Virus record (IMG/VR): IMGVR_UViG_3300025131_000006
Direction: 5' to 3' (one strand)
DNA from: a virus
Length of the DNA: 64,000 nucleotides
Both the position numbers and the translations under genes were made by a program. Shown in pieces: positions 1-62,305 of this stretch; positions within the stretch are counted from its first letter, which is position 1, and each line of letters begins with the position of its first letter. The notes under the pieces are model-generated. The model searched no databases. It had not been told where the DNA came from and saw only the letters and a program-made list of their open reading frames with translations.

Positions 1-104
1 TTCCGTGAGCCGGATATTGGCGATCAGCTAACAGCGATCGCCACAGAAGTGGTGCCCCACAAGCACCGTCGTTTTTTTAAAAAGCTGTCTTTGTACCGAC
101 CGAC

Positions 105-119
105 GTTCAGTCACTGAAC
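105..119. repeat. 15-bp palindrome GTTYAGTNACTRAAC, site 1
   Basis: GTTCAGTCACTGAAC, intergenic. Confidence 0.9.
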
Positions 120-203
120 TTTGGCGCGCGAAGGCGGCTTTTTTTGTGCCCGCAAGCTTGATTACTGATCAAGCACAGATCCCCGACACCAGGAGAACCA
201 GAG

Positions 204-824
204 ATGAGAAGACCAGAGATTGACACGAAGACCCAAATCGAAAGCACACCGAGCTTTGAGCAGCCCACACAGGAAGTGGGTGACGAGATCGCCCACCAGG
301 GAACGTGGGGGTGGCATGCCCTCTCGCAGGTGGACTTCCGCAAGCTCAAGTACGTTCATAAGATGCTGTGGGAGGCGTATTTATTGTGGCGAAGGGGGAA
401 GATTTGCCCGAAGATTGTGCCGTTCGTTACCTACTTCAATGATTGGAGAGAGGTGTGCGAGCATGTGGGGAACATGCATGCACCAAAGGCTCGCATGCGG
501 CAGTATGTGGGCAAGGGCATGCCCATTGCGAAAGGCAATAAGGGCAGCGGAGAGGACTTCACAGGGGCGTGGTTCGAATTGTCGGGGGTGAAGGATACTC
601 GTGTTCATGACGCCGAGGGGCGTCGCTTGAGCGGAGGGTGGGAGGTGTTCTTTAGGGATGCATGGAAGATTGTGGAGGCGTTGCGGTGGGCAAGGGTTCC
701 GCATGACACACCGACGGACGCGGTGACGTTCGTTCCGCCGCACCGGGAGGTGTGGGAGGCGTTGTATGAGAAGCTTACGAGTCCAGCGGCTTACTGTGGT
801 GAATCCACTGTGCAACCCGAATAG
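204..824 (+). CDS. hypothetical protein
   Basis: 206-aa ORF with an AGGAG a few bases upstream; no recognisable motif; converges on and overlaps the 3' end of pncB. Confidence 0.6.
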   Translation: MRRPEIDTKTQIESTPSFEQPTQEVGDEIAHQGTWGWHALSQVDFRKLKYVHKMLWEAYLLWRRGKICPKIVPFVTYFNDWREVCEHVGNMHAPKARMRQYVGKGMPIAKGNKGSGEDFTGAWFELSGVKDTRVHDAEGRRLSGGWEVFFRDAWKIVEALRWARVPHDTPTDAVTFVPPHREVWEALYEKLTSPAAYCGESTVQPE

Positions 825-1956
825 CGTCGGTATCTCCGGTGATCTTTCCCGGTTCGTCCGAGAGCTTGACGACCGGGATTCCGTCGCAGTGCGTCATCTT
901 GATCACGATATTGAGTGGCGTGGGTCCAAAGTTGTTGGTCAGGTTGGTGCCGATACCAAAGGCCACTTGAGCGTCGATCTCGTTGGCTTTGAGGAAGCTG
1001 CTGATGTGACCCACCTGTGTGGGGTTGAGGCCATCGGAGAAGATGAAGGTCTTGGAGGAGAGGTCGATTCCGAGTTCACGGTAGTGTCGGGACATGCGGC
1101 TTGCCCATGCCAAGGGGCACCCGGAGTCGTGGCGAACGCCGCTGTAGCTTCGAGCGAGGAGACCGTCGAAGTCTCGCAGGAACGATTCGGTGCCAAAGGT
1201 GTCTGTGAGGGCGATGCTGACGTTTCCCTTGAAGGTGTCGAGCCAATCTTCCAAGACGTATCGGTTGGCGTACCTCACTCCTTTCAGGGCCGAGTATCCC
1301 ATGAAGATCTCGTGGGCTTGGGTGCCGATCGGTTGCAGGTCATGCCGGTGGGCCAAGTGGACACAGCTTGTGCCCAAAAAGGTGGCGAAGAGGGGGGATC
1401 GTTTCGCGAAAAGATCGACGACTATGTCGTGTCCCAAGCTGCTGTGGCGTCGTCGAAGTCCGAAGTCCGCAACGGGTTGGCCGATCAGTTGAGAGATCTT
1501 CTGCGAGGTTCGGACTCGATAGACTCGTTTTGCGTTCTCGATGGGGTCCACGCAGTGTTGGAAGTAGAGTTCGCTGATTTGGGCCATAAGGGGCACTTCC
1601 CAGAAGATGGCACTCTCCCACGGACCCTCGACCGTGAGGTCCAAGACGCCGTCTTCGGATACGCAGAACTCGACTTGATTGGCGTCGAACTTGAAGTTTC
1701 GCATGTAATCCAAGAAGTGGGGGGGCAAATAGGGGCATCGTTCCCGCAGGAAGGAGATCTCTTCCGGGGTTGTCCGCAGGTACTCCATGCTTTGGAGGAA
1801 GGTGCGGAGGCCATTGACGAACTTGTCAGTATTGAACAGGTATCGGGGGTCACGGTCGAAGAATTTGTATTTTACCGGAGTGCCGGGGCAGTTGCGAAGG
1901 ACGAACGCGGCCATGTTGAACTTGTACAGGTCGTTTTCGAGAATGGATCGGATCAT
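775..1956 (-). CDS. pncB: nicotinate phosphoribosyltransferase
   Basis: PncB motifs in order: SILENDLYKFNM, DFGLRRRHS, GTS, GTQAHE, ALTDTF, GVRHDSG, FSDGL, FGIGTNLT, PLNIVIKM, KLSDEPGK; ATG at 1956 preceded by AGGAG. Confidence 0.95.
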   Translation of the reverse strand: MIRSILENDLYKFNMAAFVLRNCPGTPVKYKFFDRDPRYLFNTDKFVNGLRTFLQSMEYLRTTPEEISFLRERCPYLPPHFLDYMRNFKFDANQVEFCVSEDGVLDLTVEGPWESAIFWEVPLMAQISELYFQHCVDPIENAKRVYRVRTSQKISQLIGQPVADFGLRRRHSSLGHDIVVDLFAKRSPLFATFLGTSCVHLAHRHDLQPIGTQAHEIFMGYSALKGVRYANRYVLEDWLDTFKGNVSIALTDTFGTESFLRDFDGLLARSYSGVRHDSGCPLAWASRMSRHYRELGIDLSSKTFIFSDGLNPTQVGHISSFLKANEIDAQVAFGIGTNLTNNFGPTPLNIVIKMTHCDGIPVVKLSDEPGKITGDTDAIRVAQWIHHSKPLDS

Positions 1957-2011
1957 AAGACGCTCCTGGTGATTGGGTTGCGAATGGCACCTGTGAAGAG
2001 GAAGAGGGGTG

Positions 2012-2133
2012 GGAGAGGGAGAGAACGGAGCCCAAGGACTGTCGCGTCTTGCTTGTGCGCTGCGGTGCCGAGGCACCAACTAAGCCATTGAAGCGTCATT
2101 GCCGTTGGCTTGGGCTCCGTTCTCTCCCTCTCC
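2012..2133 (-). ncRNA. putative structured small RNA, copy 1 (perfect 25-bp closing stem around a 72-nt core)
   Basis: 2012-2036 is the exact reverse complement of 2109-2133; internal hairpin GGTGCCGAGGCACC; directly downstream of the 37-bp promoter-like motif; second copy at 3913-4035 shows covariation. Confidence 0.7.
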
Positions 2134-2140
2134 TGTCGCT

Positions 2141-2177
2141 TGTAATGTCTTTCTCTCCGTTCTATTTTGCGGTGCAC
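2141..2177 (-). promoter_or_regulatory. conserved 37-bp promoter-like motif, copy 1
   Basis: Minus strand GTGCACCGCAAAATAGAACGGAGAGAAAGACATTACA; 7 near-identical copies, each upstream of and co-oriented with small-gene cassettes. Confidence 0.75.
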
Positions 2178-2813
2178 TCACCAAGGGCAGGGAGTGCTTG
2201 GTCTGCTTGTCCGGTTTGCTATGGTCTCCCAAAGTACCTCTTTTTCTGTTTCGGTCAACAGCTTTGCCTCTTGCGAGTACTCCTTCCAGAGGAGGGCATG
2301 TGCTAGATAGCGTCTAGCTCTAGCGAGCGAGGGAGCCGAAGATGTATTTAGCCATGTGTCGCCGCTTATGGCTAATGTTTTGGCGGCAGGGATGGCTCTC
2401 GAATGTGTACGTGTAAGGGTTTCTAGTAGGGAGGCTCGGAGGTTGTTGAAAAAGACACGCCGAAGGTCTCTTGCGAGCTGTGAGAGACCTTCGGAGGGGT
2501 GGGTTCTCCTCATTCCCCTCAAGATCGTTCCGATTCCTGTTCGACAAGGGTTGTGGGGGCTTCGTGCGAACCCGATAATGGGTTTAGGTTGCCTGTGGTC
2601 GCCCTTGGGAGAAAGGTCGAGCATTATGAGTCCGATGGTTTCTGGATCACAGAGCTTCGCTCTTTCTAGCGTTTCCTTTCCGGTAATGGGAGGGGTGTGC
2701 CCCGAAACAGTGACGAGCGAAAAGGTATTGTATTTGTTGAGAACTGTGTAAAAATCTTGCTCTGGGGGAGGAGGCAAGCGTTCGAATGGGAATATGATGG
2801 GGAAGTTTGTCAT
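2178..2813 (-). CDS. hypothetical protein, paralogue of 4083..4709
   Basis: C-terminus WKEYSQEAKLL...LW...TPCPW aligns with WKEIEAHAKLV...MW...TPCPW. Confidence 0.7.
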   Translation of the reverse strand: MTNFPIIFPFERLPPPPEQDFYTVLNKYNTFSLVTVSGHTPPITGKETLERAKLCDPETIGLIMLDLSPKGDHRQPKPIIGFARSPHNPCRTGIGTILRGMRRTHPSEGLSQLARDLRRVFFNNLRASLLETLTRTHSRAIPAAKTLAISGDTWLNTSSAPSLARARRYLAHALLWKEYSQEAKLLTETEKEVLWETIANRTSRPSTPCPW

Positions 2814-2833
2814 GGTCTTTCTCTTCGGGTGGG

Positions 2834-3040
2834 TCACATCCAATCTATGAGGACGGAGTTGGGTGTGCGTGTGCTGTCGTCGCAGTGCACCATGAATTGT
2901 CTTTTTTTCTCGGAGAAGTGGCCTTTTTCGACCTCCGACACACTCATAAATATTCGCCCGTCACGACTGTATTCAGATATGATCACTTCGGCGTTTGGAT
3001 CGTGTTGGAGTAGTTCTTGGATGAGTTCTTTGACAGTCAT
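2834..3040 (-). CDS. small hypothetical phage protein
   Basis: 68 aa, MTVKELIQELLQHDPNAEV is a common small phage protein N-terminus. Confidence 0.65.
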   Translation of the reverse strand: MTVKELIQELLQHDPNAEVIISEYSRDGRIFMSVSEVEKGHFSEKKRQFMVHCDDSTRTPNSVLIDWM

Positions 3041-3059
3041 TTGATGGACCTGTGTGTGA

Positions 3060-3074
3060 GTTTAGTGACTGAAC
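3060..3074. repeat. 15-bp palindrome, site 2
   Basis: GTTTAGTGACTGAAC, intergenic. Confidence 0.9.
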
Positions 3075-3084
3075 TTTCTGTGGT

Positions 3085-3531
3085 TTAGTCTTCCAAGTAT
3101 CGAAGAGAATTTCCGTTATTCCAAGCGGTGACGGCTTCTTTACTCTCGATAGGGGTGGTCGGCATTTTCTCGGCCATATCTTTGATGAGTTGGGTCATAC
3201 CGTCCACAGCGGGGAGCCCTTTCATGTGGATCTTCATCTTGCATCGGTTCGAGACGAGTACCCAGATAATGCCGTGTTTGTCGGTACGGTGCCGCCAGAC
3301 CCAATACCGGGCCGGGGAGGATTCCTCTCCGGTGTAGCAGAAGCTCTGTCGCCCCCAAAGACGCTTGAAGTAGGTGACCTTATCGAAGATAAAGGCCGAG
3401 CGAACGAGCATGGACAGGTATTCTTCGGCGAAGTCCACGCTCAGGACTCGGTGGGGCCACTGCTCAATCTTGTAGACTTCGTCTTCGGAGAGAGCTTTCT
3501 TGTATTCGCCGCGAAGGAAGGATGCGATCAT
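3085..3531 (-). CDS. hypothetical protein
   Basis: 148-aa ORF packed tightly in the minus-strand operon. Confidence 0.65.
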   Translation of the reverse strand: MIASFLRGEYKKALSEDEVYKIEQWPHRVLSVDFAEEYLSMLVRSAFIFDKVTYFKRLWGRQSFCYTGEESSPARYWVWRHRTDKHGIIWVLVSNRCKMKIHMKGLPAVDGMTQLIKDMAEKMPTTPIESKEAVTAWNNGNSLRYLED

Positions 3532-3534
3532 TAA

Positions 3535-3882
3535 TCAGTACCCCATGTAGGTTTGAAAGTCTTGCAGTTCGGAGATCTCAGACATAAAAGAAGGGGAGAA
3601 GGAGGTGTCGCGTTCGACAGCGGGGATACGGAGGCGGATTTTGCCGAGCCGCATTCGAAGGCTCTTGAGTTCGTCGAGGCAGATATACCCCCATTCAAAG
3701 GGGTGTCCGTTGATGGAGGCCAAGCCAAAGGCTCGGTTGGAGTCCATATCGATTTCCGAGATGTACCACGTGGCTTGAGCCGAATTGTGGAACAGTCGTG
3801 CGTAGAACTTGGTCTTGCGACCGTTTCCGTCTTGCGTGTAGAGCGGGGGCACTTTCATGCTTTTCAGAATAAGTTTTTTCAT
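3535..3882 (-). CDS. DUF2958-like protein
   Basis: PPLYTQDG...ARLF...ATWYISE.D....AFGL.....EWGYI.LDEL......VERD..F pattern. Confidence 0.75.
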   Translation of the reverse strand: MKKLILKSMKVPPLYTQDGNGRKTKFYARLFHNSAQATWYISEIDMDSNRAFGLASINGHPFEWGYICLDELKSLRMRLGKIRLRIPAVERDTSFSPSFMSEISELQDFQTYMGY

Positions 3883-3912
3883 TACATAGTCCCTGTAGGA
3901 GAGAAGAGGGAA

Positions 3913-4035
3913 GGTGAAGGAGAGAACGGAGCCCAAGGACTGTCACCGTCTTGCTTGTGCGCTGCGGTACCGAGGTACCAACTAAGCCATTGAAGCGTCA
4001 TGGTCGTTGGCTTGGGCTCCGTTCTGTCTTTCACC
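3913..4035 (-). ncRNA. putative structured small RNA, copy 2
   Basis: 3913-3937 pairs with 4011-4035 (23/25); internal hairpin GGTACCGAGGTACC, a compensatory change relative to copy 1. Confidence 0.7.
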
Positions 4036-4045
4036 CGTTGTCGCT

Positions 4046-4082
4046 TGTAATGTCTTTCTCCTCGTTCTATTTTGAGGTGCAC
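4046..4082 (-). promoter_or_regulatory. conserved 37-bp promoter-like motif, copy 2
   Basis: GTGCACCTCAAAATAGAACGAGGAGAAAGACATTACA on minus strand. Confidence 0.75.
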
Positions 4083-4709
4083 TCACCAAGGGCAGGGAGT
4101 TCTTTTTCCTTCAAGGTTGCTCCACATATCTCGCAGGGTCTCGACGGGCACGAGCTTGGCGTGAGCTTCGATCTCTTTCCATCTCTGTGTGAGATCGTTC
4201 CATGTGAGCCAATGGGCTCGGTTGGAGGATGATGGGTCAAACGAGGGGTCTTTTATCTTTGGGACGTGCCACCGGGGGAAAGCTCTCAGTAGCTCACGCA
4301 TTCGCACGGTGGGGTCTCGCTCCATCTCTAGTTTGAGTCGATATGCTCGACAGACCTCCAAGAGGAGCATCTGGATGCCCTCCTCCCACGGTATTTGGGA
4401 GTTTGTGACCTTTGAGTCTATCCCCATCGACAGAGGGGCACCGACGTCGCGGATGCATGCAACGTCCAAGAGAATGCCGTTTTTGTACCATCCATAAGCA
4501 AAGGCACCAATCGTGTCATCATCTATCAGGTGCCACACATCGACAGCCTTGAGGTGTCCCGTAAGTTGCTCGATGGACCCGTCGTATCGGATGACGAAAA
4601 GAATCTTATCCGGATAGCTTTCGTTTTCATTTGGAATGAGGCAGTCGGATATATCGGACCAGAATGGGTGTCTTGATATGTAATCAAAGCACGGTTCTTT
4701 GGGAATCAT
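4083..4709 (-). CDS. hypothetical protein, paralogue of 2178..2813
   Basis: 208 aa; shared C-terminal block ending TPCPW. Confidence 0.7.
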   Translation of the reverse strand: MIPKEPCFDYISRHPFWSDISDCLIPNENESYPDKILFVIRYDGSIEQLTGHLKAVDVWHLIDDDTIGAFAYGWYKNGILLDVACIRDVGAPLSMGIDSKVTNSQIPWEEGIQMLLLEVCRAYRLKLEMERDPTVRMRELLRAFPRWHVPKIKDPSFDPSSSNRAHWLTWNDLTQRWKEIEAHAKLVPVETLRDMWSNLEGKRTPCPW

Positions 4710-5040
4710 GGGTCTCTCTGTTGATTATCGGCAAAACAAGAAGAGTAGGGGCACTAAGAATAGCAAGGTGGCCAGGAGGGCGATGCCTCCGGCCACGGTC
4801 GTGTATCGGCTCATGGTTGTTCCGTGTGGTCGGTTAGAGCCCCCAATGCGTGAGGAGGACGGCGACGAGTAGTAGGGCTGCTGCCCAAAAGGTCGCGAGA
4901 AGGGGGCCGCGATTGCGGTGCCACCAGAGGGTGTTGTTGGGCTTTCTCTTATTCATACGGACACCTTGTTCGCAGGTTCTAGGTTTGGAGTGGGTTCGGA
5001 ACCCACATGTTCGATTACATGTGGGTTATCGCGACCGATT

Positions 5041-5490
5041 CTATGTCGTAGGGAGGGTGCCGTGGATAGCGACCTCTCGGAGTTCGGACAAGGAGAGACC
5101 TTCGAGGCGGCTTTCCAAGATCCACGAGTTGAGAGCCGCCTCTTTGGTGAACTTGTAGGTTCTGCCGTCTTCGACGCGGACCGCACTCACGGGGTACTTG
5201 CGGCGACGGGGGGCGAATCCGGTGAGTCGGTAGGTGATGCCGCGAGAGGTGAACGTTCTCCCGTAGTCGCTTTCTTCGTATCCGTATCGGGCACAGTTCT
5301 TTTTCCAATCGGCGGGGATGCCGTCTTCGGAGATCGTTGCGAGTTCGAAGGTGAACTTCATCGTTCCTTGGGGGCTGTATGTGCACTTGGTCGTTTCGAA
5401 CTTGAAGTTATTGTCTTCGGCGAAGTCGGCGAGGAGTGCTTGGAGTTTGTTTTGAATTTGTCGAACTTTGGCGGAAGAGAGAGTAGACAT
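5041..5490 (-). CDS. hypothetical phage protein
   Basis: ATG at 5490 with AGGAG RBS; YGRTF...YRLTGFAPRRRKYPV...GRTYKF. Confidence 0.7.
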   Translation of the reverse strand: MSTLSSAKVRQIQNKLQALLADFAEDNNFKFETTKCTYSPQGTMKFTFELATISEDGIPADWKKNCARYGYEESDYGRTFTSRGITYRLTGFAPRRRKYPVSAVRVEDGRTYKFTKEAALNSWILESRLEGLSLSELREVAIHGTLPTT

Positions 5491-5528
5491 GTGTTTTTCT
5501 CCTAGAGAAGGTGTGCGGAAAGTGGGGG

Positions 5529-5873
5529 TTATCGGACTTGTTTGGCAGCGACTGCCGAGAGGGCCATCAGATGCTTGCAGAACATGCTGTTTGCGTTGTG
5601 GTCCGGGCAGGAGCAGTGATGCCACCCGTTCGACCCAATGATGACGTGGTGAATGTTGGAGGCATCGACCCGAAGGTGGGCGGCGAGGCCAACTTGCGAT
5701 TCGTGTCGTTTGATCCAGAAGGAGACAGAGTTGTCGCCTTTGTCGCGGGCTTGGCGAATGATGTCGCGGGCTTTTTGAATCCGGCGATTCATCGCCTCGC
5801 CGACTTCGCCGGTCAGTTGTTTGAAGTTTTGAACCATATGTACGAGGGATTGGGCGTGTTCTCGAAGGGTCAT
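5529..5873 (-). CDS. SWIM zinc-finger protein
   Basis: CSCPD...CKH signature (CxC-xn-CxH). Confidence 0.8.
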   Translation of the reverse strand: MTLREHAQSLVHMVQNFKQLTGEVGEAMNRRIQKARDIIRQARDKGDNSVSFWIKRHESQVGLAAHLRVDASNIHHVIIGSNGWHHCSCPDHNANSMFCKHLMALSAVAAKQVR

Positions 5874-5909
5874 TCTTTTTTTTCTCCCGTTGTTTTTTTC
5901 GATTCGCCC

Positions 5910-5946
5910 TGTAATGTCTTTCTCCTCGTTCTATTTTGAGGTGCAC
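5910..5946 (-). promoter_or_regulatory. conserved 37-bp promoter-like motif, copy 3
   Basis: Identical to copy 2; upstream of the SWIM gene cassette. Confidence 0.75.
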
Positions 5947-5960
5947 TTTTCTTGGAAAGA

Positions 5961-5975
5961 GTTCAGTGACTAAAC
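5961..5975. repeat. 15-bp palindrome, site 3
   Basis: GTTCAGTGACTAAAC, divergent intergenic region. Confidence 0.9.
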
Positions 5976-6117
5976 TTCATTGCTTCTTATAGACATTGTT
6001 TTGTTTTGTGGCCCCGTGGTATAACAGCAAGGGTCGGCTCCTCTCCCCTTTTTTGGAATGAAACGCAAGGGAGTCGTTCTCTTCTTGGGGTCCACTTTTT
6101 ATCGATGGGAGTTATCC

Positions 6118-6909
6118 ATGCGAACGGTGCTGTACAGTCGGTCATATCGAGGCAGAGTCATTAATATTAAGGGAAAGCACGTTCTGGTTCCGGAGTCCGG
6201 CTTTTATGATCCCGCAGTGGATGGCTTGCACCTGTCGGACTTCTCTCGTGTGGAGGGCTTCACAACGACGGAAGTGGAGGATGAACCGGCAGAGTTGTTG
6301 GGGTCGGATATTCCAGAGGTTGCTCTTGTGGAGGAGCCCGCCTTGGAGTCGATCGGTGAAGTGTCTGTCGTGTCACAGGGTATTGCTGTTGAAGTGCCGA
6401 AGGATGAAGGGGAGGTAACAGAGGAGGTGCCTCCAGGGAAGCCAAGCGGAGACCCCACAGAGGAGGTGCCTGTTACCGAGGAGCCTGAGAGCAGTACAAT
6501 AGTGGTGGATGGGAACTTGGAGGTTGTGGATGGGAACTTGGAGGTTGTGGAGGACAAAGAGGAGCCCTCCGAGGAACCCAAGGCAGCGGAGTCCAGTTTT
6601 TCAACAGAGCCTTTGGCAGCAACAGTTGTTGTGGATGGACACTTGGAGGCCGTGGAAGAGAGTACTCCAGACACAGAGGCTGTAGACGCCGTTCTGGAGG
6701 GAGTGGTGGAGTTGGCGACCGAGGAGAAAGAGGCTCTTCAGGAGCAGCAGGATTTGAGCGTGGTGGAGTTGGATGCCGTGTCGGTGACATTCCCCGGATC
6801 GAAAAAGAAGTCCGCTGCTAAAAAGTCATCGCCTAAAAAGAAGTCCGGATCGAAGAAAAAGAGCACGGGCTCCAAAAAGAAAGGTGCGGGCAGGAAAAAG
6901 AGCAAGTGA
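6118..6909 (+). CDS. acidic low-complexity protein with Lys/Ser-rich basic C-terminal tail
   Basis: E/V/P-rich body, tail GSKKKSAAKKSSPKKKSGSKKK; ATG 6118 after GGGAG. Confidence 0.7.
   Translation: MRTVLYSRSYRGRVINIKGKHVLVPESGFYDPAVDGLHLSDFSRVEGFTTTEVEDEPAELLGSDIPEVALVEEPALESIGEVSVVSQGIAVEVPKDEGEVTEEVPPGKPSGDPTEEVPVTEEPESSTIVVDGNLEVVDGNLEVVEDKEEPSEEPKAAESSFSTEPLAATVVVDGHLEAVEESTPDTEAVDAVLEGVVELATEEKEALQEQQDLSVVELDAVSVTFPGSKKKSAAKKSSPKKKSGSKKKSTGSKKKGAGRKKSK
6505..6546 (+). repeat. 21-bp tandem repeat x2 (VDGNLEV), diverged third copy near 6631
   Basis: GTGGATGGGAACTTGGAGGTT repeated. Confidence 0.85.
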
Positions 6910-6955
6910 TAAAAGGGGGGCACCAACAACACGGGCAGAAAGGTGAGAGCAGCAC

Positions 6956-7849
6956 ATGCGTTATGTAAAACAGAACGTCGGCTCCGAGGATACCGTGCAA
7001 CTCTTCACATCTGCGGGTGTGGCGGTGCCAGGTGTCTTGTTCGGCGAAGTAATCGTCGAGATTCGCAAGGCAGGAGCGTCAGGGTGGTCTGCCAAGGCGA
7101 TCACCGGGTCAAATTGGACAGACAGAGGTGCGGGCAATTACGCGCTCAAGTTTGAAAATGCGGATTTTGACACATTGGGTATCTTTCAATACAAGATACG
7201 TCCAAATGGTCCGTCGTTTCAGACCTATCAGGACAGCTTGTATGTTGTCACGACGTTGCCGACGGTGCTGCCTGCTCCACCGACGATCAACTCACAGACG
7301 GACTCGTCTCCGGGCATTCTGCCGAATCCTGTGTACAAGAAGACGGCGCCCAACACCTTAACCATCACCGGAACGGAGTTGTTGAATCCAACGGCGGTGA
7401 CGGTGGGTGGGGTGGCTCTGAGTGTTACCGCAAACACAGACACGTCGATTGCTGTGACGGTGATTGATGCAGTTCCACTTGGAACGGACGTCGAGGTGAT
7501 TGTTGTAACGGCGGGTGGGACCGCTAAAGGGAAAGTCAATGTTGTCGTACACCCGGATGACATTCCAGGTGAGTTGTGCGAGATCCACGGCAAGGTCTTT
7601 AGCACGAAACTAGGGCAGCCATTGAGTGGGGTTGCGGTTTTCGCTATCTTGTTGGATATGCCTGTTATTGTTGATGGCGTGGCATGGACAGATGAGACGA
7701 TTCCAGTATCGACGGATGCACAGGGGGTTTTCTCAGTGAAGCTCCCGCGACAAAAGCGAGTGGAGATTTTTATCCCCAGGACGCAATACCGGCGAGAGTT
7801 TGTTGTGCCTAATGTCGCGAAAGCAGACTTGTTTACAGAGATTCCGTAG
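6956..7849 (+). CDS. putative virion protein with Ig-like (IPT/TIG) beta-sandwich domains
   Basis: TLTITGTELLNPTAVTVGG...TDTSIAVTV..V.VVTAGGT; C-terminal G.PL.GV.V...TDAQG.FSV.L. Confidence 0.6.
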   Translation: MRYVKQNVGSEDTVQLFTSAGVAVPGVLFGEVIVEIRKAGASGWSAKAITGSNWTDRGAGNYALKFENADFDTLGIFQYKIRPNGPSFQTYQDSLYVVTTLPTVLPAPPTINSQTDSSPGILPNPVYKKTAPNTLTITGTELLNPTAVTVGGVALSVTANTDTSIAVTVIDAVPLGTDVEVIVVTAGGTAKGKVNVVVHPDDIPGELCEIHGKVFSTKLGQPLSGVAVFAILLDMPVIVDGVAWTDETIPVSTDAQGVFSVKLPRQKRVEIFIPRTQYRREFVVPNVAKADLFTEIP

Positions 7850-7861
7850 GTGGGAAAGAAG

Positions 7862-10800
7862 ATGTCCGAGCCTGTTGAAACAGTTGAGTCTCCTGATTTG
7901 AGTCCTTCTCCGGAAGCCCTTGATCAGCATGCATTTATGGAGCAGTACCACAAAGAGGATGGTCCGGGGGAGGGAGGGGAACATCAGGTGCGCGATCTGA
8001 TGCGGGATAACTCTTGGGTGCGAGCAGCACATCTTCCGGTGAATCACAGCGAAGCAGGATGGAAGGCGGGTCGAAGAATGCCAGAGGGCATTGATCCGGA
8101 GCACGGGGAGATGTGGGATGGTTTTCGGACAGCCAACAAACTCTCCGCTTTCCATGGAGAGGAGCCGATCCATCCAGATGATTACAGGGAGATGTTTGAA
8201 TCCGACAGGGAAGCACGGGATCAGCATCGTGAATCTGTTTCGGTCTCCGACGTTCTGGGGGGATTTGGCTTGGAGTTGGGGAGGAAGAGTAAGCTTGACT
8301 CCGAGCCCGTTCAAATGGTTTCGGAGGAGCTTGGTCGCCTCCAAGGGGCGGGGATGTCCTTGTCGTCTCCGGGTTATCGTGGGGCTATAAAGTTAGAGAT
8401 GCAGTCACCAGACGACGATCCTGAGTATTGGGCGTATGGCCTGTTGAGAGGTGAGTACTTACCAAAGAAACACGCAATCCGCGTTGACCGCAGCGGTGAG
8501 TCTTTCGCACATGAGTGGTTTCACGCGGTAGATGGCGACTTGGGTTTGCCGAAAAGTTGGTGGCGCCGGGCAGCGCAAAAAGTAAAGACGGCTTTTGATT
8601 TTACCAAATTTGCGGCATCTAATGGTCAAGGAGATAGGCCAGAGTCGAGACACTTAGAGAGCTTTGTGAAGTTCCTTTCGACGATACCAACTGTGCAAGA
8701 GAGATGGGATCGGTCTTATTCGACGGAGTCAAGACCTGGGATGTTGGATTGGTTGCAAGGGGATATGCCGGAAGATCCTGGAAAGGACTTGGCCGAGTAT
8801 ATGTTGTCTCCGCACGAGGTGTGGGCACGATTCGGGGCACAGTTGGTCTCATACAGGTCGGCTGTTGCAGTTGCTCAAGGTAGATTGGCTCACCCGACCT
8901 TGTTGGCAAACCCATACAGTGAGTTGTTGAAAGATCCAGGTCATTGGACACATGAGGAGTTCTCTCGCATCGTGAAAGTATGGGAGAGATCTCCTCTCTC
9001 GAAGATGTTGGAGTCGGGGATAAGAAAGGCTCTTGGGTTTGGGGTGTTCTTGAAGTCTGAGGGCGAGCAACTGTCGCTGCCGTTCTCTATACGGGCACAC
9101 ACTCCAGGTGGCAGTGCTCCGCCTGCTGTCTCGCCACCAACACCTGTTGCGGATTCACCAGGAAGTTCAGTCACTGAACATTCAGGGACGGGCGGTGCAG
9201 CAGTTTCCAACAGCACGACCACCGATTCCTCTCCTGAAGTACCAACGGAAATAGTCCCGCCAGAACTGACCGGGGAGTGGGAACAGGCGGGAGGTGGCGT
9301 GCGGCATCGCGTAAAGGGCTATGTTCCCGTTATGTCGCATCCAAAATACGAAGAGATCGATCTTCATCCAGGGGCTTCTGCGAACGCGAGAGCCCATGCT
9401 TATCGGAATCGACGGGTATTGGAGGAGCCGAAAGTTGTTGATCATATGCCAATCCATGAGTATGGACACAGCGGCCTACATCAGGAGCGGGGGTGGGACG
9501 ATATACCGGGCCGATCCATACATGATCTGGAGGAGATTAACCGCCGGGGTGTGTCGATGCAGCACAGGTATCCATCGGTGGCATCGGTCGAGTTTGAGCC
9601 GGAAGAGATCTATTCGGCGATGGATGGTTTGCAAGCAGAATTCGAGCATCGATTCCAATCACAGCTTGGGGTGGTTAATAAGCACAAATACAAGGCACAA
9701 GTTCCCGACCACGGATTTTCGTTTGCCAATGAAGAGTCTGTGCGGAGTCCGGCACAGGTGGCAGCGGCGACATCTGCTTCGCTGTGGACAGGCGGGAAGG
9801 TCGAATATGTGCGCAATCCGGACCTTTGGGACTCAAACGAACTCGACAAGGAGAGCGTGGGAGGTCCTGGTGGGTGGGAGGGAGAGAGGACGGAAGAGAA
9901 TTACAGGATGGCGCATCGGGTGATGACACAGTTGGCACAACGTCAGGGTGACGAGACAGTGTCAGTTGCTCGTGGGATGGCCATTCCAAGTCATCACGTG
10001 CCAGGGTTTTTGGACAAGATGGACTTGGGAGACATCTCAAGCTGGACCAAGGGAAGTAATTATCAGCCCACTATGACTTTTGTGAGTCATGCCTTGGATC
10101 ATGGGTTTTGGGACGAAAGTCACCTTGAGTCTTTTGAGCACCAGCTTCGGGAAGGGCTGGAGCAGTCGGGGAACTTTGAGGAAGGAAGCGACGAGGTAGA
10201 TCAATTACTCGAAGAATATTTCGAGCACCACGGCGGGCCATTGGGGAACAATGGTGATGCTGACATTTTTGTTGAATTGGACATGGACAGTGAGGTGCGT
10301 CACTTCCGAGAGAGTAATCTTGGGCATTACTCTTCTGGCATGGCAGCAGTCGTGTTGTTGGCCGATACAAATATTGGAACGACACTGAACCACATCTCAG
10401 CTTATCCGGGTGAGTGGGAGCATGTGCTCGGAGGAGAGGCCACGGTGCGCGACGTGCGAAGGATTCCCTCTTGGGATTCAGGTGAGTGGGACGAGGAAGA
10501 TTTTTGGGACCATGATGAAGATGATTATGCCGCTCGCGAAGATCACCCAGCGTACGGAGACACAGGAGAGAAATTTACGGAATTCACGGGTGCCAATGAC
10601 CATCTTGTAGGTGGTCTCGAAATTTACGTTATCAAAGTCGAAGTGGCGCCCAAGTCCGAAGTAAAGAAGGGTCTCTCTCAAAAGGAGAAGCCCAAGCCGA
10701 AGACGTTCCAAGATTGGGTGGATTGGAACTTGAATATAAATCTTCCTCGAAAAGGCAAGGAGGAGCCGAGCACGAACAAGGACGAGAGAAAAGAGCAGCC

Positions 10801-13285
10801 TGTTATCACCAAGGGACCGACTTGGTCGGGGCATAAGTTGCAAGGGCGTGCGAAGGTCGAGGGTATGGACATCTCGATCGAAAACGCTCGCGGCAGCGTT
10901 CGTTCCGGCGTGGACCCGGATGGGAACAAGTGGGAAACGAAGATGCGCGATCCGTATGGGTATATCCGTCGGACACTTGGCGTGGACGGTGACCACTTGG
11001 ATTGTTTTTTGGGACCGCTTGCTCGGCGCCAAGCCGCAGGAGAGGATGTCGAGATCCCAAAGGTGTGGGTTGTTCATTCAAGAGACATTGAGACGGGTAA
11101 ATACGACGAAGACAAGGTGATGTTGGGGTACAAGGGGAAGAGCGAGGCTGTTTCTGCATTTCGGCATCACTATACTGACCCGGACCAGCACATAGGTCCG
11201 GTGTCCGAGTTCACGATGGAAGAGTTCAAGCATCGGATCTCCGACACGATGGAGAACCCGCGAAGATTGGGTCGTGGACGCTGGGTTAGAAAGTCGGAAG
11301 ATGAGTCGCGGGCTCCAAGCTCTCCCTTCTCTGCCAGTGATGCTTCGCAGAGGGCACCGTACCACGTCCAAGACGAGCCCTATAGAGCACCCCAGGCCCA
11401 CGCACCGACCCAGGACGCAAACACGTCGTGGCAGCCCCATTGGGCTGCTGTGGCCCCCACCGCAGAAGCACCGACGGAAGACAACGTGCCCAAAGAGGAA
11501 CTTGTCCCACAAGAAGAACCCCCTCACGCACCGTGGCGTCACATCAGCTTGCCCCACGAGGAATTATGGGAGGAGACGGCATACGGGGAGACGAACCAAG
11601 CTGAAGCGCAGCTTGATACAGGTGATATACAAGACGAGACGTTTGCACCCGGACCTGAATTCCCAGGACAAGACGACAATCAGGCGTCCGACGACAACGA
11701 AGAGAGTGCTCCGGCAGACCCGAAGCCGACTCAAACGCCAGCGTCGAGGACTCGATTCGCTGCTCAAGAGGCTCGTGAGTCTCGTGCCAAAGCATTCAAA
11801 GAGCAGCACAAGGGCTACGAGATACCGAGCTTGACAGAACTTTTGCATCACAACGAAGAGTACGATCACGACATCCACGTGAGCCGTGGGTGGTTTGGCC
11901 AGACTTATGTGGACAACAAGTGGAGTCCAGAGGGAGGAAGTCAAGGTCAAGTACTCGTGAAGTACGGGATTATGTCAGAAGAGGAGCAAGCCATTGCCAC
12001 GGAAGTGGGGGAGTTGGGGATTGGCCCGGTGGTTTTGGACTCCCACGCGGGTCTCGTAGACATCGATGCCAACAGTCCAGGTGTTCGGCAGCTAGAGAGC
12101 TACATCAGCCAAATGCGAGATCGTGGGATTGTCCGGGGCGACTCCGGGGCAGAGCACGAAGGGATGGGGTTGAACACAAACCATCCGTTTGCTGTGCCGG
12201 ACAGCGGGCGCCATAACCGACGAGCCCACTTGGGAGATGCCCTTGACGAGCACAGGGGCGAGTATGACTTCGACATCGAGGAGCGTCGGAATGAGCTTTT
12301 CGAAGGCACGTTGGGGTCTTTGGGCATTGAAGCATACAATGACGATGACCTGATGGCGGATTACGAGCCAAAGGATGTTTTGTATGAAGTGCAGGGGATG
12401 GAAGAGGATGACCCCGACGCTCCTTATAACTCAGACATCTATTGGGGAGAACCGGAGTTCGGTGCCTACTTGGCGGATGTGGTTCGCATGGTGGGTGGAG
12501 ATGAGTATGCAGTCGAAGATGTGGAGCAGACGTACGAAGAGTTGATGGAGATGCAGCGCTTCGCGGACGGCGAAACGAACGGAGACCTGGACGATCACGT
12601 GTTGGAGGCGGGCTTGGAGATGGGCTTGTACCACACGACGTCGATGCTTGAGCGAATCCGGAGCTTACTTAACATAAACAAGCTCCCTGTTGAGAACTTC
12701 CAAATGGGCGCTCGCATGGCGATGGAGTACTTGGAAGGGTACGAGCCGGTGGATGGTCTCTTCGGGGATCAGTACAGTTTCGACTCCGGCGACGTGGAGC
12801 CAGAGACAGCGGACGACGCGGACAAGTGGGTGCGGGCGAGCTTGGGCATCTTGGATATGATGTCCATTTTTCACGGAGAGGGCCTGACCCACGGAGATTT
12901 ACACACGTATAACGTGATGTGGGACGGAGAGGTGGGGCGTTTGATTGATTTCGGGATGGCGCAACGGTACGACCAAGACTCATTGGATTGGGGAGCCTAC
13001 CAGAACTTGCTTGTGAACTTACAGAAGGGTCTGAAGACGATGAGCATGCGGGGAGCAGCGGAGGCGGGCTTGTCGGGAGACAGTCGGATTGCAATGGAAG
13101 CCGGGATGCACAATCTTAGACAAGAGGTCAATGAGCTTGCAGGCAAAGTCACGGATGCACTGACGGACGCTCCAAGAGGAAAGCAGCGGCTGACTATGTA
13201 CTATGGCGACTTTGCCGAGATGGTTCGCGAGAAGACCTTGGATGTCTCCCAAGCGTACCATGAGCTACGATCGAAGTATCTGTAA
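7862..13285 (+). CDS. large polyvalent protein: zincin + ADP-ribosyltransferase + inorganic pyrophosphatase + protein kinase-like domain
   Basis: FAHEWFHAVD..EVWARF (zincin); ARGM..ISSWT..EWEHVL (R-S-E ART); ISIEN.RGS.RSG.D.DG..W....YGYIRRT.G.DGDHLD..DEDKVMLG (polyvalent-type PPase); MEYLEG..HGDLHTYNVM..IDFG (kinase). Alternative GTG start at 7850. Confidence 0.85.
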   Translation: MSEPVETVESPDLSPSPEALDQHAFMEQYHKEDGPGEGGEHQVRDLMRDNSWVRAAHLPVNHSEAGWKAGRRMPEGIDPEHGEMWDGFRTANKLSAFHGEEPIHPDDYREMFESDREARDQHRESVSVSDVLGGFGLELGRKSKLDSEPVQMVSEELGRLQGAGMSLSSPGYRGAIKLEMQSPDDDPEYWAYGLLRGEYLPKKHAIRVDRSGESFAHEWFHAVDGDLGLPKSWWRRAAQKVKTAFDFTKFAASNGQGDRPESRHLESFVKFLSTIPTVQERWDRSYSTESRPGMLDWLQGDMPEDPGKDLAEYMLSPHEVWARFGAQLVSYRSAVAVAQGRLAHPTLLANPYSELLKDPGHWTHEEFSRIVKVWERSPLSKMLESGIRKALGFGVFLKSEGEQLSLPFSIRAHTPGGSAPPAVSPPTPVADSPGSSVTEHSGTGGAAVSNSTTTDSSPEVPTEIVPPELTGEWEQAGGGVRHRVKGYVPVMSHPKYEEIDLHPGASANARAHAYRNRRVLEEPKVVDHMPIHEYGHSGLHQERGWDDIPGRSIHDLEEINRRGVSMQHRYPSVASVEFEPEEIYSAMDGLQAEFEHRFQSQLGVVNKHKYKAQVPDHGFSFANEESVRSPAQVAAATSASLWTGGKVEYVRNPDLWDSNELDKESVGGPGGWEGERTEENYRMAHRVMTQLAQRQGDETVSVARGMAIPSHHVPGFLDKMDLGDISSWTKGSNYQPTMTFVSHALDHGFWDESHLESFEHQLREGLEQSGNFEEGSDEVDQLLEEYFEHHGGPLGNNGDADIFVELDMDSEVRHFRESNLGHYSSGMAAVVLLADTNIGTTLNHISAYPGEWEHVLGGEATVRDVRRIPSWDSGEWDEEDFWDHDEDDYAAREDHPAYGDTGEKFTEFTGANDHLVGGLEIYVIKVEVAPKSEVKKGLSQKEKPKPKTFQDWVDWNLNINLPRKGKEEPSTNKDERKEQPVITKGPTWSGHKLQGRAKVEGMDISIENARGSVRSGVDPDGNKWETKMRDPYGYIRRTLGVDGDHLDCFLGPLARRQAAGEDVEIPKVWVVHSRDIETGKYDEDKVMLGYKGKSEAVSAFRHHYTDPDQHIGPVSEFTMEEFKHRISDTMENPRRLGRGRWVRKSEDESRAPSSPFSASDASQRAPYHVQDEPYRAPQAHAPTQDANTSWQPHWAAVAPTAEAPTEDNVPKEELVPQEEPPHAPWRHISLPHEELWEETAYGETNQAEAQLDTGDIQDETFAPGPEFPGQDDNQASDDNEESAPADPKPTQTPASRTRFAAQEARESRAKAFKEQHKGYEIPSLTELLHHNEEYDHDIHVSRGWFGQTYVDNKWSPEGGSQGQVLVKYGIMSEEEQAIATEVGELGIGPVVLDSHAGLVDIDANSPGVRQLESYISQMRDRGIVRGDSGAEHEGMGLNTNHPFAVPDSGRHNRRAHLGDALDEHRGEYDFDIEERRNELFEGTLGSLGIEAYNDDDLMADYEPKDVLYEVQGMEEDDPDAPYNSDIYWGEPEFGAYLADVVRMVGGDEYAVEDVEQTYEELMEMQRFADGETNGDLDDHVLEAGLEMGLYHTTSMLERIRSLLNINKLPVENFQMGARMAMEYLEGYEPVDGLFGDQYSFDSGDVEPETADDADKWVRASLGILDMMSIFHGEGLTHGDLHTYNVMWDGEVGRLIDFGMAQRYDQDSLDWGAYQNLLVNLQKGLKTMSMRGAAEAGLSGDSRIAMEAGMHNLRQEVNELAGKVTDALTDAPRGKQRLTMYYGDFAEMVREKTLDVSQAYHELRSKYL
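9165..9179. repeat. 15-bp palindrome, site 4 (inside CDS linker)
   Basis: GTTCAGTCACTGAAC encoding SSVTEH. Confidence 0.9.
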
Positions 13286-13302
13286 CCAAACCAGGAGCAA
13301 GA

Positions 13303-13521
13303 ATGAATCCCAAGCGAGAACGAAGCCCCCAGGCCATCGCAGCCCAGATCTTGGGAGAGCGAAAGATGTTGGTGCGCGAGCTTCGCGGCACAGATAAGAG
13401 CGAACACCCTGAGCGATTTCAAGACCTGACCGACAAAATTAGTGCTTTGACGAAGAAACTGTCTGAGCTTCCGGAGAAGCCGACGTCGCGGACGATTCAG
13501 GCCGCTCTGATGTCGAACTGA
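13303..13521 (+). CDS. small helical protein downstream of polyvalent gene
   Basis: 72 aa, AGGAG RBS. Confidence 0.7.
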   Translation: MNPKRERSPQAIAAQILGERKMLVRELRGTDKSEHPERFQDLTDKISALTKKLSELPEKPTSRTIQAALMSN

Positions 13522-13530
13522 GGTGCAGTG

Positions 13531-14766
13531 ATGAGTCCAAAAGACGGTGGTTTTGGGGTATTGCGTAAGAGCGAGGAGCACGACAGCTTCCAGTCGAGCA
13601 GTTATGCCGTACCAAGGGAGCAGATGACGTGGCGTCCTCCCACGCCGAATATTCCGGGCCGCCCTGTTTCGCCTCCAAGTGGGCAGCCCCAGGAACAGGC
13701 CCCGATCACTCCGCCCCCGGTGCAGCCCGGCACAGAGACTCCGACTCCAGAAGACGCTGCGTCGATGCCGAGCTTTCACGATCGTGATCATGGATGGATG
13801 TCGCATCTGTTGCCATCCCAGGAGCATGCGAACAATATGCCGGGGCATACGAAGATGGACAGCGACCAACTTTACATGCACCACAGCTTCGCAAGGCCAT
13901 TCACCGATCTGTCCCAGTTTGATGGTGTGGACTCCAGAGTTGAGCACCGAACTGTACAGATGGGTGACAGGGAGTTCCACCAAGCCAAGGGAGACTTGTC
14001 GCACGAGGCGGTCCACATGGGGAGCTTTGAGAGGCGTTTGGAGCGGGGCCTTGACGGTGGTTTGGAGTTGCACAACGAGCACATGTTGGTGAACCCAGAG
14101 TTCCGGGGCAAAGGGTATTCTTCCCAGTTTTATGCACGCCAAGAAGACTACCTCCGGCAATTGACACAGCACTTGCCGGAGCAAGAGAAAGCAAAGACGC
14201 GGGTCACAATGTTGGCGGATGTGGTGATCGGTCGATACCAATGGATGACGCAGGGGTATCGATTCTCCGATCATGCGACTCGTTCAGACGTCGTGCGCAG
14301 TTGGCATTCTCAATTGGAAGACCTGTTGGCGGGTCACGCGGGCATCGTGGGTCCGGAGGCGGGCAAGAAGAAAAAAGATGTGACGTGGGGCGACTTGCAG
14401 TCGATGGAGCCGAGGTCGTTGGATGACTTGGGGCTCCGCGAGTCTGCGGAGGAGTTGCGGGATAAACTGTGGGACGCACAATATGACGAGAACATCGAGC
14501 CGTGGGACTTGTTGGCGATGGATCCTGGACACCGTTTTTTGATGAGGGCTTATTCGCAGACGGACGAGCAGAACGTTGTGCCGGGCTCGCTGATCAAGTT
14601 CTTGGCGTTGTGTGGTCCGGATTGGTCTGCGGTCAAGTACGTTCATGGTCCCACCGAGAAAGACCAAGAGGGCATCGAGTTCGGCGACGAGCGGCGCCAT
14701 CGAATGGCACAGCACGCCCATCGTTCGGGTCGCCCGTGGGGGTGGTTGCAGTCGCAAGACAAATAA
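13531..14766 (+). CDS. GNAT-family acetyltransferase domain protein
   Basis: VNPEFRGKGYSSQF (acetyl-CoA motif A), then ADVVIGRYQW..QGYRF. Confidence 0.75.
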   Translation: MSPKDGGFGVLRKSEEHDSFQSSSYAVPREQMTWRPPTPNIPGRPVSPPSGQPQEQAPITPPPVQPGTETPTPEDAASMPSFHDRDHGWMSHLLPSQEHANNMPGHTKMDSDQLYMHHSFARPFTDLSQFDGVDSRVEHRTVQMGDREFHQAKGDLSHEAVHMGSFERRLERGLDGGLELHNEHMLVNPEFRGKGYSSQFYARQEDYLRQLTQHLPEQEKAKTRVTMLADVVIGRYQWMTQGYRFSDHATRSDVVRSWHSQLEDLLAGHAGIVGPEAGKKKKDVTWGDLQSMEPRSLDDLGLRESAEELRDKLWDAQYDENIEPWDLLAMDPGHRFLMRAYSQTDEQNVVPGSLIKFLALCGPDWSAVKYVHGPTEKDQEGIEFGDERRHRMAQHAHRSGRPWGWLQSQDK

Positions 14767-14781
14767 TCTCTGTCTATATAT

Positions 14782-14997
14782 ATGGGAACACCGCACCACG
14801 GGAGAGGGAAAATGGAAGATTGGGAACGGAGAGCACGGCAGAGGATTGAAGAGGGAACATACAACGACGGCTTCGGATGGTCCGACATCGGGGGCTTTAC
14901 GGCGAGCGAGTTGCGGACTCTGCGCGAGCAACACGAGGAAGCCGAAAAATCCCTTAGAGATGCGGATGATCCGGGTGTTCTCGAAGAGAAAGATTAG
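14782..14997 (+). CDS. small acidic protein
   Basis: 71-aa ORF directly after the GNAT gene; true start may be the internal ATG (MEDWER). Confidence 0.55.
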   Translation: MGTPHHGRGKMEDWERRARQRIEEGTYNDGFGWSDIGGFTASELRTLREQHEEAEKSLRDADDPGVLEEKD

Positions 14998-15048
14998 ATC
15001 GCAGAACTTGCAATAACGGGCATGGGTGTATTATAAGATTGACGTGGG

Positions 15049-15063
15049 GTTCAGTCACTAAAT
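15049..15063. repeat. 15-bp palindrome, site 5
   Basis: GTTCAGTCACTAAAT (1 mismatch). Confidence 0.85.
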
Positions 15064-15084
15064 TCTCACCCCAAGGTGATTCCA

Positions 15085-16716: not shown

Positions 16717-16731
16717 GTTTAGTCACTGAAC
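16717..16731. repeat. 15-bp palindrome, site 6
   Basis: GTTTAGTCACTGAAC, abuts TGA stop. Confidence 0.9.
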
Positions 16732-16759
16732 GTTCACGCCTCACCAGGAGAGCACAGCA

Positions 16760-17011
16760 TTGTTGGGAAAGCCATGGATGATCAAGAACGTGCAAAAGCG
16801 ACGGTTTGGTGCATCAAGCCAGTACATCGTCATCCAATGCCAGGCACCTCACGACATAGAGGTTGCAACCCAAGTCGGAGATTCTGTCGAGAAAGCGGAG
16901 GGAGAGAACTTTTATTTGGCGTTCACGGAGAACGAGTTTGTTCGGGCTTGCAGCCGTGCGTCGCAAATGTCTTCGGACATCGAAGAGTTTTTCGTGGAGC
17001 CCACCGAATAG
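16760..17011 (+). CDS. small hypothetical protein
   Basis: 83 aa, AGGAG RBS upstream. Confidence 0.6.
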   Translation: MLGKPWMIKNVQKRRFGASSQYIVIQCQAPHDIEVATQVGDSVEKAEGENFYLAFTENEFVRACSRASQMSSDIEEFFVEPTE

Positions 17012-17085
17012 TTTTCGGTGATGGGCTGTGCTAGTATGCTCTTGGGGTCCAGGGGCGTTTCTTGGGGTGATAGCGAGACGACACG

Positions 17086-18609: not shown

Positions 18610-18614
18610 GAGAG

Positions 18615-19829: not shown

Positions 19830-20029
19830 TGCGAACGGTTGTTCTCAAGTCGCACCGAGCACGAGCGTTGCAGTCCGAGCGACGGCAGTTGCAACGCCAA
19901 TTGGCATCGGCAAGCTCCGAGGGAGAGAGATCGAAGATCTTAGAGGAGCTACGAATCCGGATGGCAGAGATATTGCGGGAAGAGGGGGAGGATCGACAGA
20001 GTGCTTACGGGATAGCCCACATGAAGTGA
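19829..20029 (+). CDS. small coiled-coil protein
   Basis: TAATG stop/start overlap with the zincin gene. Confidence 0.65.
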   Translation: MRTVVLKSHRARALQSERRQLQRQLASASSEGERSKILEELRIRMAEILREEGEDRQSAYGIAHMK

Positions 20030-29102: not shown

Positions 29103-29243
29103 TGCCGTGGTGGGGGATTGCGGCAACCGCAGCGAGGACGTATAAATAAAAGACCAGATGTCTTGGGCCAGCACCATCTCAGAATGTGGTGACTTATATC
29201 GGGGGCTTGGGGGCATCTGGTCTTTTATGCTGTGGAGAACAAT

Positions 29244-60997: not shown

Positions 60998-61034
60998 GTG
61001 CACCTCAAAATAGAACGGGGAGAAAGCCATTACA
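60998..61034 (+). promoter_or_regulatory. conserved 37-bp promoter-like motif, copy 6
   Basis: GTGCACCTCAAAATAGAACGGGGAGAAAGCCATTACA. Confidence 0.75.
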
Positions 61035-62301: not shown

Positions 62302-62305
62302 TGCC

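Follow-up and report, generated by a model that had tools for sequence, protein, structure and literature searches.

Organization of the locus

The window analysed here, that is the whole 64,000-nt stretch of viral DNA from IMG/VR record IMGVR_UViG_3300025131_000006, contains two copies of a structured element, located at positions 2012–2133 (122 nt) and 3913–4035, which constitute the minus-strand leaders of two unrelated early operons. The element is real and structurally constrained, it is so far unique, and it is part of a promoter cassette that is present in duplicate. Read on the minus strand, each cassette consists of an 18-nt gene tail, a 37-nt promoter-like box, a linker of 7 or 10 nt, the element itself, and a pyrimidine tract ending in ACAGG. 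An earlier model-generated annotation of the same DNA, made from the letters only and called the original prediction below, had placed the element directly behind the promoter-like motif and in front of such a tract and of unrelated genes, and this is also what is found. The stem begins 7 nt (copy 1) or 10 nt (copy 2) past the CATTACA end of the box, on the same strand as the genes, the tract is located 3' of both copies, and the element lies ahead of a Shine-Dalgarno sequence and an ATG. The gene after copy 1 encodes a nicotinate phosphoribosyltransferase (NAPRTase, pncB) and the one after copy 2 a DUF2958 protein. The features of the region are as follows, with scores for the two elements from the covariance model R1 described below.

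775–1956, minus strand: nicotinate phosphoribosyltransferase gene (pncB-like), PF04095 with E 4e-55 and PF17767 with E 1.5e-31, downstream of copy 1
1990–2011, minus strand: pyrimidine tract ending in ACAGG, 3' of copy 1
2012–2133, minus strand: element copy 1, perfect 25-bp terminal stem (2012–2036 with 2109–2133) and 72-nt core, R1 score 155.7 bits
2064–2077, minus strand: internal 5-bp hairpin of copy 1 with loop CUCG on the minus strand, one compensatory change (G-C to A-U) between this hairpin and that of copy 2
2141–2177, minus strand: box before copy 1, A-variant
2178–2195, minus strand: gene tail TPCPW and TGA of the upstream gene for a 211-residue protein, the same 18 nt as 4083–4100
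3535–3882, minus strand: DUF2958-family gene (Pfam E 1.4e-10), the first gene of a four-gene module downstream of copy 2
3891–3912, minus strand: pyrimidine tract ending in ACAGGG, 3' of copy 2
3913–4035, minus strand: element copy 2, stem with 23 of 25 bp (3913–3937 with 4011–4035) and 73-nt core, R1 score 152.6 bits
3966–3979, minus strand: internal hairpin of copy 2, the counterpart of 2064–2077
4046–4082, minus strand: box before copy 2, A-variant
4083–4100, minus strand: gene tail TPCPW and TGA of the upstream gene for a 208-residue protein, the same 18 nt as 2178–2195
5910–5946, minus strand: box heading the same leftward gene cluster, the third A-variant, with no element behind it

An alignment of the two regions shows that the repeated unit is about 195 nt long and thus larger than the element alone. 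The homology spans 2199 to about 1990 and 4104 to about 3891 with sharp borders and about 90% identity, and since flanks on both sides are shared (2007–2199 against 3908–4104, about 90% identical) the two copies represent one duplication or transfer of a regulatory cassette and not independent occurrences. The description of a duplicated RNA has to be modified in this respect, as both elements are present but belong to one duplicated unit which includes the promoter and five codons. The two cassettes form direct repeats around a module of four small genes, and, as judged from the alignment, a single duplication or transfer is what moved the regulatory cassette together with the gene tail. The inferred proteins of the two upstream genes both end with TPCPW because the cassette extends 18 nt into each gene, and it seems that the native C-termini of the 211- and 208-residue proteins have been replaced by the cassette. 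Paralogy of the two upstream genes was also considered and is ruled out, the proteins being not detectably related when compared without their common tail (E = 0.075).

A second public assembly has the same cassette without any difference, which excludes an assembly artefact. Near-identical assemblies are found in Logan (SRR5251702) and JGI (3300002514), and the near-identical public contigs, L008 and L079 with 100% and L078 with 99.96% identity, add no further variation.

The promoter-like box

The 37-nt box runs from GTGCACC to CATTACA. It is present in seven copies in the window, each oriented with its downstream gene, and these are located at 2141, 4046, 5910, 21709 and 35956 on the minus strand and at 61007 and 61688 on the plus strand. 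For the 28-nt core of the box the seven occurrences in the window compare with 0.00 expected. Behind five of the seven boxes there is a plain, conserved leader, about 30 nt in length, in which a GGAG Shine-Dalgarno sequence precedes the ATG, and only behind the boxes at 2141 and 4046 is the plain leader replaced by the 122-nt element. The boxes at 2141, 4046 and 5910 are of the A-variant (GAAAGACATTACA) and make up one leftward cluster, where the elements are located below other promoters and should therefore also be intercistronic in transcripts that read through from upstream. A consensus scan found no workable σ70 hexamers in the box and no host-type promoter nearby on either strand, and neither an RNA polymerase gene nor an RNase III gene was found among the open reading frames (ORFs) scanned with Pfam. 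In sequence terms the box behaves like a phage promoter, and this promoter is probably phage-specific.

A 15-bp palindrome (GTTYAGTSACTRAAC) is found throughout the genome, at 105–119, 3060–3074 and 5961–5975 and at about 21763, 36014 and 61640, and is located 20–50 nt upstream of four of the seven boxes, those at 5910, 21709, 35956 and 61688. These pairs of palindrome and box look like end-of-unit and start-of-unit signals. The palindrome at 3060–3074 lies within the operon that follows element copy 2, with no box behind it.

Predicted fold

The terminal stem described in the original prediction is present in both copies. In copy 1 the arms are complementary at all 25 positions and enclose 72 nt, and in copy 2 they form 23 of 25 Watson-Crick pairs with 73 nt in between, one of the two mismatches being G·U on the plus strand and A·C on the minus strand. 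When the window was scanned for local inverted repeats, no other came near these two stems in length, the next best having 15–17 nt. The fold z-scores of copies 1 and 2 are -8.6 and -6.2 for the minus strand and -8.0 and -6.4 for the plus strand, and none of the shuffled sequences was as stable. The RNAalifold consensus of the minus strand is rod-like with 45 pairs, and the changes in the core are either compatible with it as wobbles, which is the case for two of them (G·U to A-U and G-C to G·U), or unpaired. The loop of the internal hairpin, CUCG on the minus strand, fits the YNMG tetraloop type. In the predicted fold of copy 2 the pyrimidine tract is base-paired to AGGGA, a Shine-Dalgarno-like sequence belonging to the next gene. 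Pairing or triplex formation between the 5' arm of copy 1 and the downstream pyrimidine tract was rejected on inspection, as it is not conserved in copy 2.

Elsewhere in the window an inverted repeat of 15 perfectly matched bp, with 53 nt between the arms, is located at 29146–29228, in the gap just upstream of a gene starting at 29232, and may be another structured leader or a terminator.

Covariation between the two copies

Within the element, 11 substitutions and a single 1-nt indel distinguish the two copies. Six of the 11 substitutions make up three compensatory pairs. Two of these are in the outer stem, where A-U has become U-A and G-C has become A-U, and the third, again G-C to A-U, is in the internal hairpin of 5 bp. 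Both the joint change of the outer arms from GGAGAG/CTCTCC to GGTGAA/TTCACC and the hairpin switch from GGTGC..GCACC to GGTAC..GTACC, which had been pointed out earlier, are thus real. A simulation with the structure taken from copy 1 alone (25 + 5 pairs), in which 11 random substitutions with the observed mix of transitions and transversions were introduced in 200,000 trials, gave P = 2.5e-5 for three or more compensatory pairs by chance. Two further substitutions disrupt pairs in copy 2.

The substitutions are unevenly distributed. In the outer stem (11 bp) 6 of 22 positions are substituted and in the inner stem (14 bp) 0 of 28 (Fisher P 0.005). The core, which had been described as nearly identical between the copies, is indeed changed at only 5 of 72 positions (P 0.018). 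The outer stem varies yet covaries whereas the inner stem and the core barely vary, indicating that the outer part is constrained in its pairing only, and the inner 14 bp and the core in their sequence. The invariant inner stem and near-invariant core suggest a further, sequence-specific partner. The idea that the structure is under selection stands in so far as the pairing has been kept beyond chance. The arms of a palindrome can also stay complementary by templated correction at the DNA level, so that the covariation shows that pairing is preserved and not why.

Searches for relatives

The element had not been recognized as a member of a familiar RNA family, and in agreement with this a cmscan-type check of the 64 kb against Rfam gave 0 matches at gathering score. 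When positions 1900–4200 were compared with Rfam 15 at E values up to 10, only generic miRNA-precursor hairpin models were found, with 19–39 bits against thresholds of 53–184. ARAGORN detected no tRNA or tmRNA in the window, and a tRNA-like, Y-RNA-like or ribozyme nature is rejected by these two programs together.

Among the INPHARED phages, megablast with positions 1–20000 of the window and blastn with the cassette gave only a 26-nt chance match. Scans of IMG/VR with an 18-mer of the core, the stem pattern and the promoter gave chance matches only (L001–L007), as did the promoter pattern in the JGI metagenome contigs, where a 20-mer of the core had 0 matches. In the GTDB genomes the inner-stem pattern had 18 matches where about 17 are expected; none of them is related and one is an ordinary tRNA. 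The covariance model proposed for the two copies was built on the minus strand (R1; it says nothing about the strand of the RNA) and run, but found no homologue, and the covariation is therefore limited to the two copies. In about 76 kb of the genome, made up of the 64-kb window and of flanks of 6.4 kb on the left (L008) and 6 kb on the right (L078), R1 finds only the two copies. In 43 IMG/VR loci that encode a homologue of a 399-residue protein of the window and in seven bacterial genomes (G001–G007) it gave one unrelated terminator hairpin (L058).

A possible RNase III processing stalk

We tentatively regard the element as a cis-acting leader and intercistronic RNA in which the 25-bp helix is an RNase III processing stalk and the core is constrained in its sequence, a reading that we prefer while giving it slightly less than an even chance. 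It builds on the fold, the preserved pairing, the place between box and gene, and the restriction to two of the seven promoters, all of which are shown by the sequence analysis. A leftward early transcript would start at the phage box just upstream and include the element, with the minus strand as the RNA, and read-through from promoters farther upstream would make the element intercistronic. RNase III of the host would then cut the 25-bp helix, which should be long and regular enough to be a substrate. Cleavage would set the downstream operon apart from the cistrons upstream, with a duplex remaining at the newly formed 3' end, and the messages for pncB and DUF2958 would begin with a defined 5' end rich in pyrimidines. 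A core of about 75–100 nt would be freed as well, and the stability or translation of the messages might in this way be affected. The idealised substrate of E. coli RNase III has 22 bp, or two helical turns (PMC3867540). The stems, with 25 of 25 and 23 of 25 bp, reach the length of about two turns (roughly 20–22 bp) of an RNase III signal, and because a regular 25-bp helix exceeds the ideal substrate, cleavage of the stalk is the default expectation if the minus strand is transcribed.

If this is correct, a marine orphan phage uses the T7 scheme, in which an RNase III stalk comes after the promoter, with a much larger helix and a conserved core for which no known RNA family is a match, and its operons for NAD salvage and DUF2958 are controlled post-transcriptionally and apart from the rest of the genome. 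The locus is also a clean natural case of a promoter-leader cassette that has moved whole, with five of its codons now ending two unrelated proteins, which bears on the shuffling of accessory-gene regions in phages. As only two copies and no relatives are at hand, the practical value is so far limited.

Several points weigh against the processing stalk. The RNase III sites of phage T7 are smaller hairpins with an internal loop, and not perfect stalks capped by a 72-nt domain. The RNase III of the host may have another specificity, and the only two copies have a common ancestry, so that the covariation amounts to one sequence pair. Correction of the palindrome in DNA replication could hold the arms complementary in the absence of selection on an RNA. 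Finally, the plus strand folds slightly better than the minus strand (-75.4 and -66.1 against -73.9 and -56.1 kcal/mol for copies 1 and 2), and turns one mismatch of copy 2 into a G·U pair.

The conserved core and inner stem suggest a partner protein or a role in trans, and for this reason two further RNA-level explanations have to be weighed. The selected product could be the excised core of about 75–100 nt, a stable small RNA (sRNA) made twice early after infection that acts as a regulator in trans or sequesters, in the manner of a decoy, a protein of the host or the phage, with the stem as a mere stalk. The inner stem and core are far better conserved than the outer stem, and a stalk with an enclosed domain resembles the RNase III excision of rRNAs and of some sRNAs, an example of an RNase III-processed sRNA being given in PMC11745405; moreover, one copy precedes a gene for NAD salvage, a setting suggestive of counter-defence. 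However, identity is about 90% over the whole cassette and not in the core alone, which makes the conservation of the core weak evidence for an sRNA. Within the window no sequence is complementary to the core over more than 10 nt, none of the collections searched contains a homologue of the element, and two leader positions are an odd site for a dedicated sRNA gene, and we consider the sRNA quite unlikely. The same low chance is given to the proposal that the leaders make an undescribed class of phage sRNA, either a conserved structured RNA of about 75–100 nt, released by host RNase III from a transcript of the phage polymerase, that binds a specific host or phage protein early after infection or a new kind of processivity element retained by the polymerase; such an RNA could for instance be a decoy tied to the adjacent NAD-salvage and accessory genes. 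Alternatively, the leader could act in cis by binding a protein or the polymerase, as a put- or nut-like antitermination or anti-pausing RNA or as a translational operator recognized by a phage regulator of these two operons alone. Two copies that are each located just past an early promoter, like putL and putR of HK022 (PMC9378689), are in line with this, as is the sequence constraint on the inner stem and core, and the palindrome without a following box in the operon behind copy 2 indicates that read-through may be needed there. The same palindromes are, on the other hand, found between most late genes and are thus unlikely to be strong terminators, put RNAs consist of about 70 nt in two irregular stem-loops and not of a perfect 25-bp stalk, and RNase III would probably cleave such a helix regardless of any other ligand, so that a role of this kind appears improbable.

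The pairing could also be a feature of the DNA, namely a miniature inverted-repeat remnant of the Correia or REPIN type, a cruciform or a recombination site, which was inserted once into a leader of the standard type, copied with the cassette and kept complementary by palindrome correction. The 25-bp terminal inverted repeats and the total of 122 bp are near the size of Correia elements (26-bp repeats, 104–157 bp; PMC2649163), both strands fold equally well, and the sharp borders of the cassette together with the foreign gene tail indicate recombination or shuffling. This explanation is nevertheless unlikely, as there are two copies only and these share their flanks, so that no independent insertion is seen, and as no target-site duplication is present, copy 1 being flanked by a trivial CA only and copy 2 by none. 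No further copy was found in the roughly 76 kb of the genome, in IMG/VR, in the JGI contigs or in the seven bacterial genomes scanned with R1, and the matches in GTDB are at chance level. In addition, covariation extends to the internal hairpin of 5 bp, and selection accounts better for the difference between the outer and the inner stem.

As to the strand, the RNAalifold structure of the plus strand is equally good, with 43 pairs, and the pairing alone leaves the strand of the RNA undecided. The context favours the minus strand because the genes, the boxes and the Shine-Dalgarno sequences are all on that strand. A functional RNA from the plus strand, antisense across the leaders of the pncB and DUF2958 operons, would account for the lower plus-strand energies and for the 24 of 25 pairs in copy 2 when G·U is counted, but its support comes down to this single difference between G·U and A·C. 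No box and, in the consensus scan nearby, no σ70-like promoter reads into the element on the plus strand, and there is no terminator after it, which leaves this alternative very unlikely.

Still less probable is that the cassette is translated, by read-through (or at a CxxU selenocysteine site) or as a coupled small ORF. The upstream frame is open past the TGA for 74 codons in copy 1 and 66 in copy 2 (1953–2177 and 3882–4082, minus strand) and ends in an ATGA or TAATG overlap with the next start, and a decoded TGA behind the C-P-W of the shared tail would give CxxU. The 1-nt indel, however, shifts the frames of the two copies relative to each other, the frame stays open in 16–23% of shuffles that keep the local composition, which is compatible with chance, the five other sites of the box are clearly non-coding, and TGA is a normal stop in the window where it ends 12 of 40 long ORFs; the coding reading is rejected on these grounds. 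A bacterial selenocysteine insertion sequence (SECIS) needs a small hairpin that starts within a few tens of nucleotides 3' of the in-frame UGA. No such hairpin is found here, as the 45–50 nt after the TGA are the unstructured box and the stem is located at least 44 nt downstream.

Neighbouring genes and other features of the window

The closest relatives of the phage NAPRTase are 51–54% identical and are encoded on large bacterial contigs (L009–L012), which hints, from sequence similarity, at capture of the gene from a host; these contigs may also point to the host lineage. One of the relatives comes from a metagenome-assembled genome labelled Deltaproteobacteria, a phylum with only 6 genomes in the genome set used. 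The DUF2958 protein has one relative with 54% identity. The 208-residue protein adjoining copy 2 is an orphan with no homologue among 5.8 billion proteins, the 399-residue phrog_2319 protein (20331–21530) has no relative above 34% identity, and no Pfam match was found for the neighbouring small proteins. By these comparisons the phage is isolated, with its closest proteins elsewhere being 34–54% identical.

The public gene call of the Logan contig at the NAPRTase locus is a 441-residue antisense ORF (766–2091 of the window, plus strand; 1985–3310 of L008) and not the NAPRTase (775–1956, minus strand), which is probably why the NAPRTase of the phage itself is absent from the protein collection. 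Long spurious antisense ORFs are common in the window. The GC skew is strongly positive nearly throughout the window (+0.12 to +0.26), also in the first 6 kb with their minus-strand genes, and thus does not follow the direction of transcription. At the right end (61894–63992, minus strand) several ORFs have tails of the S-[DE]-W type, namely ESDW, SSSDW, and SSEW followed by SR.

Comparison with known systems

In the precursors of 16S and 23S rRNA the flanking sequences form a long helix from which RNase III excises the enclosed RNA (PMC3867540). The present element likewise has a long helix around a structured RNA, but the enclosed RNA has only 72 nt and is located in an mRNA leader. The Correia elements of Neisseria (CREE or nemis) have 26-bp terminal inverted repeats and a conserved core within 104–157 bp, and when located between a promoter and a gene they become part of the mRNA, where RNase III binds or cuts them and expression is altered (PMC2649163). 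The phage element resembles them in its terminal repeats of about 25 bp and its conserved core within a total of 100–160 bp. CREE are, however, mobile and occur in about 100 or more dispersed copies whose flanks are unrelated and show TA target duplications, whereas here there are two copies in a phage, with shared flanks and no target duplication, and many dispersed copies with unrelated flanks, the hallmark of Correia and other miniature inverted-repeat elements, were found in none of the collections searched.

The putL and putR sites of phage HK022 are cis-acting RNAs of about 70 nt with two stem-loops, located downstream of early promoters (PMC9378689). Two related structured RNAs per genome, each past an early promoter, are also found here, but put acts on the zinc-binding domain of the β' subunit of the host polymerase, and the predicted fold of the element is one long perfect stem, that is a 25-bp stalk with a 72-nt core, and not the put type with two stem-loops in about 70 nt. 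The PeSL cassettes of T4-type phages consist of a repeated promoter and stem-loop, flank modules of accessory genes and ORFans, and are points of recombination (PMC2839356, PMC4122927). They are similar to the direct repeats of about 195 nt which bracket a four-gene module here and carry a shared gene tail. The difference is that PeSL combine a σ70-like promoter with a terminator stem-loop, while in the present cassette the box is not σ70-like and the stem is located downstream of the box, has no U-run and is far larger.

The RNase III signals of T7 (R0.3, R1.1, R3.8, R6.5 and others) are, as is predicted for the element, stable hairpins of the transcript between a phage promoter and the first gene that are also intercistronic, they recur within the genome, and the helix is long enough for RNase III. 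Several of them are located directly behind T7 promoters. The T7 sites are hairpins of about 50–60 nt in which an internal loop restricts cleavage to a single cut, whereas the element has a perfect 25-bp stalk with a conserved 72-nt branched or rod-like core, shows no sequence similarity to them, and its cleavage is predicted. By analogy with these sites, the element is probably best seen as a variant of the phage arrangement in which a promoter is followed by a processing hairpin.

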